The notes below the pieces were generated by a model. The model saw only the letters and a list, made by a program, of their open reading frames with translations. It ran no database searches and was not told the origin of the DNA. This document shows positions 1 through 11,846 of a DNA stretch of 64,000 nt, in pieces. Made by a program: the position numbers and the translations under genes. This stretch comes from an uncultured Gemmatimonadales bacterium (GTDB lineage: Bacteria; Gemmatimonadota; Gemmatimonadetes; Longimicrobiales; Longimicrobiaceae), in contig OY970303.1 in the NCBI GenBank assembly GCA_963716255.1, positions 160,001-224,000 on the forward strand. Direction: 5' to 3'. Position 1 is the first letter of the stretch; each line of letters begins with the position of its first letter.

Positions 1-1164
1 CTGGGGCTGGGGAACGTGGAGGGCGACCCGGTGGAGGCCATGGAGGAGTTCCTGGACACCGAGGCGCGCGACGGCTTCACCGACCGCTACCTGGACGTGC
101 CGCTGGACCTTTCGGACGTGTTCTTCATCGCCACGGCCAACGACTTCTTCCGCATCCCGCGCGACCTGCGCGAGTACTTCATCGAGATCCGCATCGCCGG
201 CTACACGCCGGAGGACAAGGTGCAGATCGCCCGCAAGCGGCTCTTCCCGCGCATGGCGGAGGAGCACGGCTTCGCCGCGGACGAGGTCGCCATCCCGGAC
301 GAGGTGCTCCTCTTCCTCACCCGGGGCTACGCGCGCGACGCCGGGCTGGGGAACCTGCGCCGCTCGCTGGCCGCCATCTTCCGCTGGCTGGCGCGCGCCA
401 AGGCGGAGGGCGAGGGCGAGCAGTGGGAGGTGACGCGGGAGATGATCGAGGAGGTCCTGGGCTATCCGCGCTACACGGCCACGGCGGCGGAGAGCGCGCC
501 GGAGGTGGGGGTGGTGACGGGGCTGGCGTGGACGGCCTCGGGCGGGGAATTGATGTTCATCGAGGCGCTGAAGATGCCCGGGACGGGCCGCCTGATCATC
601 ACCGGGCTGCTGGGCGACGTGATGCGCGAGTCGGTGAACGCGGCGTACTCGTACGTCCGCTCCCGCGCGCAGGCCCTGGGGATCGCCACCAGCGCCTTCA
701 ACGACAACGACATCCACGTCCACTTCCCCCTGGGCGCGACGCCCAAGGACGGTCCCTCCGCGGGCGTGGCGGTGACGCTGGCGATCGCCTCGTCGCTTTC
801 CGACCGGGCGGTGACGCACGACATCGCCATGACGGGCGAGGTGACGCTGCGCGGCAAGGTCCTGGAGATCGGCGGGGTCAAGGAAAAGACGCTGGCGGCG
901 TACCGCGCCGGGCTGCGCCAGGTGGTCCTCCCCACCGGCAACCGCCGCGACCTCCGCGACGTGCCGGAGGACGTCAAGGAAGGGATGACCTTCCACTTCG
1001 TGGACCGCATGGACGAGGTGTTCGACCTGTGCCTGCTGGAAAAGGAGGCGCGCGGGGGGCGGCGGCGGGGCGGGATGGGCCGCGGCGGCGTGGGGCCGCA
1101 GGCCACCGCGGACGGGGAGCCGGAGGGCGCGGGCGCGGAGGAGATGGCGGCGGACGGGGACTGA
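1..1164 (+). CDS. lon: Lon protease (S16), 5'-partial: end of AAA+ module and protease domain
   Basis: DRYLDVPLDLSDVFFIATAN, GLAWTASGG, catalytic PKDGPSAG and GGVKEK motifs; frame open from base 1. Confidence 0.9.
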   Translation: MGLGNVEGDPVEAMEEFLDTEARDGFTDRYLDVPLDLSDVFFIATANDFFRIPRDLREYFIEIRIAGYTPEDKVQIARKRLFPRMAEEHGFAADEVAIPDEVLLFLTRGYARDAGLGNLRRSLAAIFRWLARAKAEGEGEQWEVTREMIEEVLGYPRYTATAAESAPEVGVVTGLAWTASGGELMFIEALKMPGTGRLIITGLLGDVMRESVNAAYSYVRSRAQALGIATSAFNDNDIHVHFPLGATPKDGPSAGVAVTLAIASSLSDRAVTHDIAMTGEVTLRGKVLEIGGVKEKTLAAYRAGLRQVVLPTGNRRDLRDVPEDVKEGMTFHFVDRMDEVFDLCLLEKEARGGRRRGGMGRGGVGPQATADGEPEGAGAEEMAADGD

Positions 1165-1182
1165 AATTGCTGGATGATCGAC

Positions 1183-1216
1183 AGCGGGGGCGGCCGGTGA
1201 TCCGGCCGCCCCCGCT
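1183..1216. terminator. Hairpin between convergent genes (likely bidirectional terminator)
   Basis: Perfect 15-bp stem AGCGGGGGCGGCCGG-TGAT-CCGGCCGCCCCCGCT. Confidence 0.7.
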
Positions 1217-1239
1217 TCGTTCGTCGCCGCGAGGCGGGA

Positions 1240-2424
1240 TCAGTGGCTGTTCAGGAATGCGATGGGATCGTGGTACCTCGCCGTGACGTAGCTCTGCGAC
1301 TGCCCGCAGGGGAACGCGTTGGCGGCCATGCTCACCTTGCGGATCTCGAAGTGAAGGTGAGCGTCGAGGCTGCCATCGCCCTTGCCCACCGTCCCGATCT
1401 GCTGCCGGCGGGCTACGTTCGAGCCCGTCCCTACAAGCCGGGTGTCGAGGTGGCCATACTGCGACCAGACCTTGCTCCCGTCCGGCAGCGTGTGCTCCAG
1501 CAGGATGACGTTGCCCCAGGTTCCTCCGTACGTCCCCGATGCGACGACCACCCCGTCCGCCGTCGCGTATACGGGCTGCCCGCGGTCCTGATCACTCGAC
1601 GTCCCGTCCTTGTTCATGTCCACTGCCGGGTGGTACACCAGACCGCAGGTCCCACCGTAATTGTACGGTTGCAGCCACCAGAGCCCGTTCCGGTTGTTGA
1701 GCCAGCCGGCCCCGTCCGCCGCACCGACCGGGTAGTCGAACGCCGCGGTGGACCCGCAGGACGTGGTGGCCGCCTGGAGCGTGGCCTGCGGAAGGTAGGA
1801 GGTGAACTCCGCGTCGGTGACGCTCACCACCTCGGCCGACGACCGGCAGTGCGACGTCAGCACGGCCTCGCTGGAAATCCCGAGCGCTCCGCCGTGGTAG
1901 GTGACCCACCGGACTTCCGGGCCGGTCCCCCGGATCAGCGTCCCCGCCTTGCGGAGCCGGAACGCGCGCGCCGCCGGTCCGTCCGGGAGCGACTTCAGCA
2001 CGGCGTCGGGGACGGTCACCAGCCGGCCCCAGTTCTGGTCCCCGAACAGCGCCTCGTAGGTCGAAGGGTCCGGGATCCCGGACCGGACGCATCCCACCAC
2101 GATGTAGGACGTGGGATCCGCGGAATTGTCGGACTTGAGGGGGGCGTCGCCCCTCAGCCAGGCGTTCGCGTTGACCGACGGGAGGACCCGGCGCTCCCCG
2201 GCCGGCAGCGATGCGACCTGGCGCACGACGCTGCGGCGGGACCCGGTGCATGCGTCGAGGGTGGCCTGGTCCGGGTACTCGTACAGCCGGCCGCCGTAGA
2301 CGAGGAACACGGCGGGCTGGCCCTGGACCTGGATGTGCTCTCCGTCGGCCTGGGCCGCAGCCGCTCCCGACGCGGCGCAGACCGCGGTCAGAACGCCCAG
2401 CAGAGTAGATGAGATCCTTCTCAT
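1240..2424 (-). CDS. Secreted M23 metallopeptidase with N-terminal ~200-aa three-repeat domain
   Basis: Signal peptide; C-terminal YHPAVD (HxxxD) and AHLHFEI (HxH), G-x-PVYATADGVV; RBS AGGAAGG. Confidence 0.88.
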   Translation of the reverse strand: MRRISSTLLGVLTAVCAASGAAAAQADGEHIQVQGQPAVFLVYGGRLYEYPDQATLDACTGSRRSVVRQVASLPAGERRVLPSVNANAWLRGDAPLKSDNSADPTSYIVVGCVRSGIPDPSTYEALFGDQNWGRLVTVPDAVLKSLPDGPAARAFRLRKAGTLIRGTGPEVRWVTYHGGALGISSEAVLTSHCRSSAEVVSVTDAEFTSYLPQATLQAATTSCGSTAAFDYPVGAADGAGWLNNRNGLWWLQPYNYGGTCGLVYHPAVDMNKDGTSSDQDRGQPVYATADGVVVASGTYGGTWGNVILLEHTLPDGSKVWSQYGHLDTRLVGTGSNVARRQQIGTVGKGDGSLDAHLHFEIRKVSMAANAFPCGQSQSYVTARYHDPIAFLNSH

Positions 2425-2605
2425 GACTTCCTTCCTGGTTGAATGCCGTTGAAGCGGGGTTCGACTCCCGACAAGCCGCTCTCCCGGGGGATGCCTCCTG
2501 GTTCTGGAACCGGAGGCCGGCCGATCCGGGCCTGATTCTCATCCTGTCATGGGTTCCTCCCGTGGCGATGGTGCGCAGGGCACCGGTTTGCGTGCCGACG
2601 GGAGA

Positions 2606-2670
2606 AGCATAATTTTTGACTCGCACGGATCTCGCACACATTCCGCACTTCGCTCGCACCTTCACCGCAC
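2606..2670 (-). promoter_or_regulatory. SARP-type operator/promoter for the M23 gene: five heptamers at 11-bp period plus -10 TATGCT
   Basis: Plus-strand heptamers CTCGCAC 2620, CTCGCAC 2631, TCCGCAC 2642, CTCGCAC 2653, ACCGCAC 2664; minus-strand TATGCT at 2611-2606, 8 nt after the last heptamer. Confidence 0.75.
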
Positions 2671-2700
2671 CCCATAAAGCCCCCGGGTTTTCACGCGCCG

Positions 2701-4362
2701 ATGGCCCGCCCGACGCCCGCTCCACGGCTCTTTCTGCGAACTCTAGGCGCACCTGCGCTCCTCGCCGATGCCTCCGAGTCCACGCTGCGGCGCAAGGATC
2801 TCGCACTCCTCGTCTACCTGCGCGTCGAGTCCGCGAGCCCGCACTCCCGCAGCACCCTCGCGTCACTGCTGTGGGCGGAGAACACCGAGCGCGAGGCCAG
2901 GCACTCACTTTCGCAGACGCTGGGGCGGCTGCGGGGAATCGTGGGGAACGACGCTTTCGCGACGTCGCGGGAGCTCGTCGGCTGGGCGGGCAGGCTGTCG
3001 TGCGACGCGGTACGCCTGGAGGAGATCGCGGGGAGCGAGTCCGTGGGCGACGAGATGCTCCGCCTTTACGGGGGCGACTTCATGGCGGGGTTCAGCCCCG
3101 GGACCGGTGGGGGCGACTTCGAGCGGTGGCTGGAGCAGCGCAGGACGGGATGCCGGGACGTGGCCGTACGGCTGCTCGAGCGCTGCGGCGAGGAAGCCGA
3201 GGAGAAGGAGGAGTGGGACGCCGCCCTGCGGCTGGGTGGGCGGCTGGTGGAGATCGACCCGTTCCGGGAGTCGGGGCACCGGCGCATCATGCGCGCCCTG
3301 CACCGAACCGGCGAGCGGGCGCGCGCGCTTCTACACCTGGAGGCGTACGAGAAGCTGCTGGCGGACGAGATCGGGCTGCACCCTCATGGGGACACGCAGC
3401 GGCTCGCACAGGAGATCCGCGAGTCGGCCGCCGCGGACGATCCCGCCCGGGAGCCGCCCTCCAGGAACCTCCCGGTCCCGCCGCTCCTCCCCGAGCCCAC
3501 GCCGCCCGCGCCGCCATCCGCGCCCGACCCGCCGGCCTCGCGTCCGGAGCGATCTCCGCCCGTGATCCCCCTCTCCGAGCCGCCGTCGCTTCCTGCCGAC
3601 GCTCCGGAGTCCGCCCGGCCACACCCACGCCGCCGCCGAGCGCCCACTGTCCTGCTGGGAGCGGCCGCGATCGCCGGGCTGATCGCGCTGGCCTGGTGGC
3701 GCAATTCGGGAACACCGGACGACGGCTTCGAGCTCCCGGCGGTGTTGCCGGAGCCGCACAACGGCGAGAGCATCCGGCCACGAGGGGAGGACAGGACGTT
3801 CCTGGTCTTCGGCCGCACGCTCTACGAGTACCCGGACCGGCCGACCCGGGAGGCGTGCACGGGCTCCGGTCCGGGCGTGGTGCGGGACGTCGACGGAGTC
3901 CCGGGGTGGCCCCACGCACGCCTTCCCTCCATCAGGGAGTATCCGTGGCTCAGCGGACGCGTGCCCCTGGTCTCCGACAACCGGGCGGACATCACCGCGC
4001 ACGTGCTCGTGGGGTGCGTACTCGCGGCGATCCCCAGCCGTGAGGTGTTCACCCGGATCTTCGGAGACGCGGGATGGGAGCGGATGGAGATGGTCTCCGA
4101 CTCGGTGCTGAGGTCCCTCCCCAGGATGACGGTGCTGGCGGCGTATCCCCGTCGCCCCGCGGGGACCCTCATCCGCGGCAGCGGGGGCAAGCTGAAGTGG
4201 GTCGTCTTCTACGAGGGCGCGCTGAGCGTGAGCGGCCCGCGGGTGCTCGAGTCCCACTGCCGGTCGGCGGCCCAGGCGATCCGCGTATCGGACGCGGAGT
4301 TCAGCGCGTACCGGGTCCAGGCGCCGCTGCACCGGGCCGCGTCCGCCTGTGCCCCACGCTGA
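2701..4362 (+). CDS. Transmembrane SARP/AfsR-family activator: wHTH + BTAD + Pro-rich linker + TM + extracytoplasmic domain paralogous to the M23 N-terminus
   Basis: LRTLG...LALLVYL...SRSTLASLLW...ARHSLSQTLGRLR (wHTH); LYGGDFMAG...FERWLE...DPFRESGHRRIMRAL (BTAD); RRRR-TVLLGAAAIAGLIALAWW TM. Confidence 0.88.
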   Translation: MARPTPAPRLFLRTLGAPALLADASESTLRRKDLALLVYLRVESASPHSRSTLASLLWAENTEREARHSLSQTLGRLRGIVGNDAFATSRELVGWAGRLSCDAVRLEEIAGSESVGDEMLRLYGGDFMAGFSPGTGGGDFERWLEQRRTGCRDVAVRLLERCGEEAEEKEEWDAALRLGGRLVEIDPFRESGHRRIMRALHRTGERARALLHLEAYEKLLADEIGLHPHGDTQRLAQEIRESAAADDPAREPPSRNLPVPPLLPEPTPPAPPSAPDPPASRPERSPPVIPLSEPPSLPADAPESARPHPRRRRAPTVLLGAAAIAGLIALAWWRNSGTPDDGFELPAVLPEPHNGESIRPRGEDRTFLVFGRTLYEYPDRPTREACTGSGPGVVRDVDGVPGWPHARLPSIREYPWLSGRVPLVSDNRADITAHVLVGCVLAAIPSREVFTRIFGDAGWERMEMVSDSVLRSLPRMTVLAAYPRRPAGTLIRGSGGKLKWVVFYEGALSVSGPRVLESHCRSAAQAIRVSDAEFSAYRVQAPLHRAASACAPR

Positions 4363-4463
4363 GCAGGGCGGTGCAAGCGGAGCACGCCGGGCGAACCGGT
4401 TCCCCGGGGCGGGGTACGGGAGGCGGAGATTCTCCTCGCCCGCGCCCATTTGGGCGGCACGGC

Positions 4464-4797: not shown

Positions 4798-4883
4798 GGC
4801 AAGCCGCGGAAACGAAGAGGCCCGGGCCAATGGCTCGGGCCGTTTCGTGCTGCAGGGCTGAACGGTTTTGTAAATGCGGGTTC

Positions 4884-5011
4884 GGGCGTGCCCCCGGCTG
4901 GCGCCGGGGTCGAGCTTCGGCTCCGTAGGGCTGCAAACAACGCAGCCCAACGGAGTCGAGCCCCCGCAGACTGCGCGGGGTCTCGCCCCTTCGGGCCGAA
5001 ATCCCTCACGC
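4884..5011 (+). repeat. Family A structured intergenic element (candidate ncRNA/REP), copy 1
   Basis: GGGCGTGCCCCCGG...AAACAAC...AATCCCTCACGC; one of 10 copies. Confidence 0.9.
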
Positions 5012-5030
5012 GAGGCCGCCTCCCTCCTGC

Positions 5031-6498: not shown

Positions 6499-6660
6499 GT
6501 GTTCAGGGTCGGCCGGGGAAGGCTCCTCCGCCGGTGCGACACCCGAAGGGACTCGCAGAGCACTCGCCCACCGCCCGAGCAAGGGCAGGATCACGCTGGC
6601 TTCGAACAAACGCACCCCCCGCGGACCCTCCCCCGACCTCCCGGCGCAGTTCCCAGAACG
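6499..6660. repeat. Family C ~160-nt structured repeat, copy 1
   Basis: Near-identical to 44990-45153. Confidence 0.85.
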
Positions 6661-6689
6661 GAAACGGCCACGGCCGTGTCGTCGCTGTT

Positions 6690-6735
6690 CTCCCCCTCTC
6701 CCGCTTGCGGGGGAGGGGGCCGGGGGGAGGGGGCC
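6690..6735. repeat. Family B REP-like palindrome CCCTCTCCCGCTTGCGGGGGAGGGG
   Basis: Identical 46-nt copy at 25793-25838. Confidence 0.85.
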
Positions 6736-6739
6736 TCCC

Positions 6740-6867
6740 GCGTGAGGGATTCCGGCCCGAAGGGGCGAGACCCCGCGCAGTTTGCGGGGGCTCGACTCCG
6801 TTGGGCTGCGTTGTTTGCAGCCCTACGGAGCCGAAGCCCGACCCCGGCGCCAGCCGGGGGCACGCCC
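6740..6867 (-). repeat. Family A element, copy 2
   Basis: Reverse complement of the consensus, just downstream of guaB. Confidence 0.9.
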
Positions 6868-10609: not shown

Positions 10610-10647
10610 GCGGGGCCCGCGCGTGCGCGGGCCCCGCTCTTCTTTTT
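10610..10647 (+). terminator. Rho-independent terminator
   Basis: GCGGGGCCCGCGC/GCGCGGGCCCCGC stem followed by TCTTCTTTTT. Confidence 0.75.
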
Positions 10648-10679
10648 CACGGCAACGAGCTAACTGAAGGGATAGAAAG

Positions 10680-11846
10680 ATGGAGACCAGCGTGCTCGCC
10701 GGCGTCCCCGTGGAGGTGACCGACCCCGTCAACTCCCGGATCCTGGAGGTGTCCGAGGACCGGGTCCAGGGCTTCGTCGCGGAGCCCTTCGCGGAGATCG
10801 CCCGCCTGTCCGGCGTGGAGCTCGCCACGGTGCTGGAGCGGATCCGCGCCATGCTCGCCGCGGGGACCATCCGCCGCGTCCGCCAGACGCTGCTCGCCAC
10901 CAACCTGGCGCCCGGCGCGCTGGTGGCGTGGCAGGTGCCGCAGGAGCGGCTGGACGACGCCTTCACCTACATGTTCCGCGAGGACCCCTTCTCCGGGCAC
11001 GTGGTGATCCGCTCCACCGACGCGGAGACGCGCGGCAGCAAGTACCGCCTGTGGACCACCGTCAAGGTGCCGCAGGGCTTCTCGCTGGCGCGGCACTGCG
11101 AGGTGCTCGGGGCCAGGGTGGGGGCGGAATCGTTCAAGCTGCTCCCGGCGAAGGCGCTCTTCACGCTGGGCGTGGGGCACGTGCGCCGCCGCGGCATGGA
11201 GCCGGGGAGCCGCACCGACGCCCCCGGCGACGTGGTGGACACGCGCATCGTGGAGCTGGACGACCTCGAGTGGCAGGTGCTGGTGCCGCTGAAGCGCGAG
11301 TTCCGGGTGGAGGAGATCCACGAGAACCCCTGGGCGGCGCGGGCGGCGGAGGCCGGCGTGCCGCTGGACGAGTTCCTGCGCGTGGCGCGCTCCCTGAACG
11401 AGCGCGGCGTCATCGGCCGCTTCTCCACCTTCCTGGAGCACGTGAAGCCCTCCGCCACCGGGCACCGGGTGACGCGCTACAACGCGCTCTTCCACTGGCG
11501 CGTGCCGGCCGGGCGCGAGATGGAGGCGGGGATGGAGGTGGCGCGGCACCACGTGATGACGCACGCCTACTGGCGCGAGGGCGGGCCGGAGTTCGCCGGG
11601 GTCAACATCATGGGCGTGGCGCACGGCACCGAGAAGGAGATGGTGCTCGCCCACAAGGAGGCCATCGACCGGCACCTGGAAGAGGCGGGGATCCCGGTGG
11701 ACTACACCAACGTCTTCTGGGGCGGGCGCAGCGAGATCAAGCCGTCCGAGATCGCGCCCTCCGAATACCTGAAGTGGTGTGAGCGGGTGGAGGTGGACCC
11801 GGAGTCCATGCGGGTGCGTGCCGACGAGACGATCGCGAGTGCGTGA
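10680..11846 (+). CDS. Tandem Lrp/AsnC-like protein resembling fused siroheme decarboxylase (AhbA/B, NirDL-type)
   Basis: Two HTH+AsnC halves (PFAEIA...G-x-IRR; PWAARA...GVIGRF) with SGHVVIR and THAYWR motifs. Confidence 0.7.
   Translation: METSVLAGVPVEVTDPVNSRILEVSEDRVQGFVAEPFAEIARLSGVELATVLERIRAMLAAGTIRRVRQTLLATNLAPGALVAWQVPQERLDDAFTYMFREDPFSGHVVIRSTDAETRGSKYRLWTTVKVPQGFSLARHCEVLGARVGAESFKLLPAKALFTLGVGHVRRRGMEPGSRTDAPGDVVDTRIVELDDLEWQVLVPLKREFRVEEIHENPWAARAAEAGVPLDEFLRVARSLNERGVIGRFSTFLEHVKPSATGHRVTRYNALFHWRVPAGREMEAGMEVARHHVMTHAYWREGGPEFAGVNIMGVAHGTEKEMVLAHKEAIDRHLEEAGIPVDYTNVFWGGRSEIKPSEIAPSEYLKWCERVEVDPESMRVRADETIASA

Follow-up and report, generated by a model that had tools for sequence, protein, structure and literature searches.

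Regulators such as ToxR and CadC combine a cytoplasmic winged helix-turn-helix (wHTH), one transmembrane (TM) helix and an outer sensor domain. Here we describe a regulator predicted to have the same layout, encoded in a 64,000-nucleotide stretch (the window) of contig OY970303.1, from an uncultured Gemmatimonadales bacterium. The regulator gene faces a divergent gene for a predicted secreted M23 endopeptidase. One domain, which we call X, is common to both proteins. We know of no BTAD in ToxR or CadC and, to our knowledge, their sensor is not common to the product of a target gene.

The intracellular part of the regulator resembles the SARP activators, including AfsR, ActII-ORF4, DnrI and EmbR, which have a wHTH and a BTAD (PMC10936776, PMC10972967). 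SARP domains bind promoter repeats side by side. The repeats are 11 or 22 bp apart, and a gap of 8 bp separates the −10 element from the last of them (PMC10936776). The window likewise has direct repeats of 11-bp period ending 8 bp from a putative −10 hexamer. Conversely, the window regulator is membrane-anchored with an outer domain, its likely target is a secreted hydrolase (in relatives, a peptide) rather than an antibiotic cluster, and there are five repeats here instead of two or three. Neither PMC10936776 nor PMC10972967 mentions a transmembrane SARP.

Two further systems are close in principle. In clostridial SigI/RsgI, the outer carbohydrate-binding module of a membrane protein reports a polymer and induces the enzymes that degrade it (PMC6852018). 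That system is a sigma/anti-sigma pair with a dispersed regulon, whereas the window has one chain with one adjacent target, and its sensor and enzyme modules are 47% identical. Pfam and NCBIfam scans found no sigma factor or anti-sigma domain, only the BTAD and wHTH. In the BlaR1/BlaI-blaZ divergon, a membrane sensor related to beta-lactamase induces beta-lactamase; the sensor is a catalytic-fold homologue, is acylated by the drug and acts via repressor cleavage (PMC9834060). Conversely, what the two proteins of the window have in common is predicted to be a binding module without catalytic function, here attached to a direct activator, and the two-gene cassette has neither the domains of a BlaR1/MecR1 metalloprotease sensor nor a repressor gene. 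We take the pair as a real, and apparently undescribed, transmembrane one-component system of the SARP type. Its mode of action would be like that of RsgI and BlaR1, and it is a member of neither. An earlier note on this DNA knew of no described system with such a mirrored architecture. For the SARP architecture this holds as far as the main texts of the open-access literature go, in which we found no account of a transmembrane SARP that has a domain in common with its target. The principle of a sensor taken from an enzyme module has precedents in RsgI and BlaR1. The pair would be a further example of a sensor made from an enzyme's targeting module. It is also a compact case of a SARP activator turned transmembrane receptor. 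The operator, the promoter, the target and a candidate class of ligand can all be read from the sequence.

The divergent pair and its putative operator

The M23 gene (1240–2424, minus strand) encodes 394 amino acids (aa). Behind a signal peptide predicted from sequence reading alone (residues ~1–24) stand X (1756–2346, residues 27–223), with three repeats of ~60 aa and four conserved cysteines, and a Peptidase_M23 domain (1324–1608, residues 273–367; Pfam E 9e-21). Both M23 zinc motifs, HxxxD and HxH (PMC9662197), are intact, with H265 in the first and H356 in the second. By sequence, the domain and both motifs place the protein among the M23 peptidoglycan hydrolases.

The regulator gene (2701–4362, plus strand) encodes 553 aa that form a wHTH, a BTAD, a Pro-rich linker, a TM helix and X. 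The BTAD (residues 117–240, PF03704, E 9e-20) scores above the Pfam cut-off. The wHTH (Trans_reg_C, PF00486, residues 27–86) is sub-threshold, with E 0.013 and 16 bits compared with a cut-off of 26.2; a homologue, P0030, passes that cut-off. A single TM helix, preceded by an RRRR stretch, is predicted at 3640–3696 (residues ~314–332; Kyte-Doolittle mean 1.95), and all eight regulators scored have a hydropathy peak. X (3760–4350, residues 354–550) is predicted to be extracytoplasmic. With the topology taken from hydropathy and the positive-inside rule only, this is the one-chain layout of a transmembrane one-component system.

BLASTP aligns residues 27–223 of the enzyme with residues 354–550 of the regulator without gaps (92/197 identities, 47%; E 7e-57), which equals the hand count in the earlier note. 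Open reading frames, BLASTP and Pfam together confirm the core observation of that note, a divergent pair with a mirrored domain. No Pfam model matches X, and the genome has two copies of it, only those of the pair. Of 34 regulator copies, 34, 34, 34 and 32 retain the Cys at the four positions in turn; of 27 enzyme copies, 27, 27, 24 and 24 do so. In a related strain (run X2), contigs span the stretches from lon to the M23 gene, from the M23 gene across the intergenic region to the regulator gene, and from the regulator gene to rpsU. Hence, the arrangement does not stem from misassembly.

Between the two genes are five GTGCG(A/G) direct repeats with an 11-bp period, which by sequence pattern form a putative SARP operator (2620–2670, minus strand; repeat starts at 2670, 2659, 2648, 2637 and 2626). 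The putative −10 hexamer of the M23 promoter, TATGCT (2606–2611, minus strand), begins 8 nt past the last repeat heptamer. Array and hexamer are both oriented towards the M23 gene and, as a pattern, match the published SARP geometry. A scan with the sigma-70 consensus found no promoter, as expected where an operator stands in place of the −35 element.

No other array of three or more repeats occurs in the 8.4-Mb genome, where 0.11 triples are expected per strand. Such an array was present at 25 of 26 lon-site regulator loci examined. A hexamer with A at position 2 and T at position 6 follows at spacer 8 in 21 of these 25, compared with at most three at any other spacer from 0 to 20; the loci are kin, so that this count measures conservation and not independent trials. 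One of the misses (L094) had its array chosen outside the intergenic region. Because the operator geometry matches SARP promoters, is unique in the genome and is conserved in relatives, the regulator very likely activates the M23 gene, as the earlier note had proposed. We are confident that it would do so by binding the repeats and recruiting RNA polymerase, in the manner of AfsR. A scan of the window's genome with the operator pattern gave seven matches: two at this operator, three intragenic and two at intergenic two-repeat sites. Nothing further stood out, and a wider regulon was set aside. So was control in trans of the X-enzymes of relatives; no array was found upstream of any of the eight X-enzyme genes without an adjacent SARP.

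Fold, fusions and proposed role of domain X

In profile comparisons, repeats 1 and 2 of X match each other (probability 90%), repeat 3 alone gives no score against either, and X as a whole matches a family of plain repeats that is widespread (99.2%). A structure model built from 26 sequences (pLDDT 96, pTM 0.91) folds the three repeats as one compact single chain. Foldseek placed EccB chains at ranks 1–11 (best E 2.6e-4). EccB1 was also the best match in a wide structure search (Z 6.2, root-mean-square deviation 1.8, 57 residues aligned), where the other matches were the cell-wall-binding domain (CBD) of LysIME-EF1 (Z 4.7), PlyCB (4.2), 3l9a (4.1) and the Lys170 CBD (3.3). Endolysin wall-binding domains are three of the top six matches, at modest scores. 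The model suggests, with moderate confidence, that the X repeats have an EccB-repeat/PlyCB-like fold, a small unit of four strands and two helices. Comparing the X or repeat profiles with PDB sequences gave nothing significant, and the ESM Atlas had no usable match for X.

A profile search with X found 192 proteins, and a domain scan covers 148 of these. A wall hydrolase domain occurs in 30 of the 148 and a BTAD in 16. The first 81 matches include 19 with M23, CHAP, Amidase_6 or Amidase_2, all 16 with a BTAD, and six that score with the EccB model (PF05108); the next 67 include wall hydrolase domains in 11 and a BTAD in none (E 1e-7). Outside regulators, X is therefore fused mostly to wall hydrolases among the matches scanned. 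Because of the fold likeness and these fusions we take X as a wall-targeting module, a role already suggested in the earlier note and one that X looks suited to. It would probably bind wall glycan or peptidoglycan. A widespread repeat, kin to the EccB repeats and without a Pfam model of its own, thereby gains a likely role in wall binding. X has in common with the wall-binding domains of PlyCB, LysIME-EF1 and Lys170 the predicted fold of each repeat and the link to lytic domains such as CHAP; the EccB repeats share the fold. X differs from all of them as a single-chain triple repeat with four conserved cysteines in cellular secreted proteins. A phage origin of X was rejected, with no match among viral contigs and phage records.

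Some carriers of X have other architectures. P0012–P0015, P0162 and L048 have two X domains in tandem (X-X-M23), and their tails are of the RCC1, Ig or cohesin type. In P0040 and P0045, X is joined to NAGPA-like domains (weak Pfam matches), and P0027 has an X similar to the window's type on a very divergent SARP-like N-terminus that no Pfam model matches.

In the mechanism that we propose, a wall polymer would bind the outer X of the membrane-tethered regulator. The X of the enzyme would bind the same polymer and target the hydrolase there. Ligand binding would cluster the tethered SARP domains, which would load side by side on the repeats; we give this step an even chance. The SARP domains clustered on five repeats would then start M23 transcription. 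The full chain, from wall polymer on X through clustering and five-repeat loading to M23 transcription, is a reasonable proposal to which we give a little less than even weight. The regulator would be a reusable input module, whose output is this hydrolase in the lineage of the window and, in most relatives, a small lipopeptide.

The structural relatives of X also point to another input. These relatives are oligomers: a tetramer in the case of the LysIME-EF1 CBD (PMC7098653), eight copies in that of PlyCB (PMC4769845). Hence, the X of the regulator could bind the X of a hydrolase, either that of the cell itself, as feedback, or that of a competitor, and the cell would sense wall-attacking enzymes and not wall material. 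The difference in charge is in line with such binding, since regulator copies of X are more basic (median +4 versus 0 in enzymes; +6 versus −1 in the window), and three relatives have a regulator and an X-enzyme at separate loci. However, the three repeats are modelled within a single chain, where the oligomer surfaces may already be used. Partner-specific binding should also leave co-variation, and none was seen. Moreover, of the 15 relatives that have the regulator, 12 showed no X-enzyme, many of these genomes being incomplete. We consider sensing by X–X contacts distinctly unlikely.

The regulator and X in relatives

We surveyed 71 genomes of the family. X was found in 20. It is part of the regulator in 16 genomes, two of these copies being cut by contig ends, and part of a CHAP or M23 enzyme in eight. 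Four genomes have both, and regulator and X-enzyme are adjacent only in that of the window. The regulator gene is usually beside lon, often with an enoyl-CoA hydratase gene on the other flank. Its upstream gene is visible in 11 of the 15 relatives, the other four being truncated. In all 11 (G116 was pieced from two contigs and G044 is cut short) this gene encodes a lipobox peptide of 57–75 aa with a GGxxGSG-type motif; an X-enzyme occupies the position in none. Thirteen metagenome loci comprise four X-CHAP genes without a SARP on the contig and nine regulators, some of which duplicate family genomes. The peptide is present at all four regulator loci with visible upstream DNA. In a phylum-wide sample, with seven candidates scored per genome, only the window's genome had X (1/401).

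The earlier note had expected homologous regulators to be linked to genes with the same domain, and had named its absence as evidence against its reading. The regulators are largely unlinked to X-bearing genes. It had also expected X to co-vary within pairs. By identity, the partner's X ranks 9th of 77 for the X of the regulator, and other regulators are closer. A clade of the window pair with P0003 (a regulator) and P0004 (an X-M23 protein) is rejected (p-AU, from the approximately unbiased test, 0.00016). On the same result, we rejected gene conversion and a recent local duplication as sources of the two X copies. The mirrored pair is less general than the note supposed, and it is better anchored through the operator and the fold.

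The constant place of the peptide, the divergent gene wherever that gene is visible, together with the many such peptides elsewhere in the window's genome, could mean that X senses the GGxxGSG lipopeptide in a pheromone loop. The M23 gene would then have been recruited later to a peptide-controlled promoter. However, the peptide persists where X is lost, the peptides at other sites adjoin tetratricopeptide repeat (TPR) proteins, which are more plausible partners, and X is found mainly on hydrolases. Peptide sensing by X is thus very unlikely.

The ancestry of X was examined in a careful tree of 42 copies, with 36 of 78 rows dropped as long branches, near-duplicates or fragments. Eighteen regulator copies form a clade (support 100/98), with the window's regulator among the early branches. 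Its sister group is the window's enzyme with P0004. Several independent captures of X by regulators, which the tree suggests, were set aside, as the test does not reject one origin for every regulator copy (p-AU 0.097). In a quick tree with long-branch warnings, the window's SARP domain falls outside the peptide-paired clade. An old pairing in the window fits this position and the early branching of its X. Judging from these sequences, a SARP may have taken X from a hydrolase long ago, and the window either keeps the old pairing or re-formed it.

Several observations weigh against wall sensing through X, the mechanism proposed above. The mirrored pair is rare, being adjacent in one of 16 family genomes with the regulator. 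Regulator X has only weak support (86/83) as sister to the X of the window's enzyme, and the test does not reject CHAP proteins in that place (p-AU 0.42). The fold Z-scores of X are all below 8, and a common fold does not show function. In the excerpt of PMC4769845, EccB repeats are already compared with PlyCB and no ligand is shown for them. If the host is diderm, as its likeness to Gemmatimonadota suggests, X faces the periplasm, from which foreign wall polymer may be absent; a periplasm-facing sensor may then read the cell's own wall. Finally, seven lon-site genomes keep regulator and peptide without X, and two more have X frameshifted or internally deleted. X-less regulators are scattered among X-bearing ones in a quick tree, so X was lost repeatedly. 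Because peptide-paired regulators repeatedly lose or break X, it is dispensable for the SARP-operator module.

These losses, the unrelated outer domains of related SARPs and the lack of co-variation within the pair would also be expected if the regulator activates the M23 gene with X as a wall anchor or inherited passenger. Membrane release or another input would then set activity, and the match between the two proteins would be a historical leftover. Conversely, 34 regulator copies of X, at 42–57% identity to the window's regulator (closest 89%), have remained whole and kept their cysteines, which argues for selection, and 27 positions are conserved in regulators and enzymes alike. We regard such a role of X, as anchor or passenger, as somewhat unlikely, though a serious alternative. 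Wall sensing remains our preferred reading. It finds support in G182, where a related regulator with a different outer domain faces an operon that ends in a gene for a secreted M23 protein. A far broader scheme seems unlikely. Here, the window pair would be the ancestral state of a family, so far undescribed, of SARP receptors tethered to the membrane. Their sensor would have been taken over from a lytic exoenzyme, where it served as the domain for wall targeting. Such receptors would detect prey or competitor walls, or attacking X-hydrolases by X–X assembly. Their answer would be the matching lysin in the window's genome and, in most relatives, a GGxxGSG lipopeptide released as an alarm into a large network of TPR proteins.

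At the lon site of G182 (L101:6503–8293, L114:358–4205), the SARP has two N_BRCA1_IG outer domains. It faces a lipoprotein-like gene and a gene of ~1,100 aa with Ig, fn3, CARDB and M23 domains. No domain is common to this SARP and its neighbour, and there is no three-repeat array. As a second mirrored pair G182 was rejected, N_BRCA1_IG being absent from the neighbour. N_BRCA1_IG and glucosaminidase occur together in P0150.

Seven loci (L097, L098, L100, L103, L224, L225 and L228) encode SARP-like TM regulators with a different, unannotated outer domain of ~150 aa that contains cysteines. They face a large gene that reads as sensor-kinase-like in sequence, or a B-lectin-like gene. No 11-bp array was found at the first group of these regulators. 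A mirrored pair through the Y domain of related regulators was likewise rejected: apart from one uncertain match (L226), Y occurs on regulator-type proteins or fragments, and no secreted carrier was identified.

The relatives also reveal an abundant lipopeptide-TPR system. In the genome of the window we found genes for at least 12 small lipobox peptides that end in GGxxGSG(T/N); in some of them the motif is repeated up to five times (loci L210–L219, including C1:4497022, 7722187, 3618664, 4443680 and 5657533). Each of the ten loci also has a gene for one of a family of ~400-aa proteins, which has 35 matches in the genome; one of two members scanned has TPR by Pfam. An AraC-type gene is present at two loci checked. 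No NCBIfam model matched, and the loci suggest an uncharacterised system, either for signalling between peptide and receptor or for modification.

The cassette at the lon site

Pair and operator form a two-gene cassette between lon and an rpsU-like gene (1163–4404), delimited by blastn against G197, G158 and G200 and by gene lists. A perfect 15-bp hairpin (1183–1216) between the convergent lon and M23 genes is a likely terminator. In same-genus genomes the site is visible in six of eight, and none of the six has the cassette. In G197, lon is 96.6% identical and is joined straight to the rpsU promoter. Hence, ~1163–4404 is an insertion, or was deleted in the others. GC content at third codon positions is 0.90 and 0.89 in the pair compared with 0.97–0.98 in flanking genes (6th–7th percentile of 491 sampled genes), which fits acquisition of the cassette.

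The related strain (run X2) has the same cassette at the same site. P0003, with an X 89% identical, and P0004, with an X 71% identical, are each found on two contigs (longest 8,206 bases) and are probably a further pair. A scan of genome contigs with P0004 returned only M23-domain matches.

The 3′ end of lon (window 1164; L111, L112, L113, L109 and L086) is a hot spot of variable cargo in the family. The cargo includes PadR-like and permease-like genes, assigned by sequence, a small Cys-rich open reading frame, and two tandem SARPs with two peptides. Further along the window, an intergenic repeat of ~140 bp lies at 4858–5016, 6591–6750 and 10647–10720. It recurs many times in this genome and in sister genomes, and its contig depth in runs X1 and X2 is very high.

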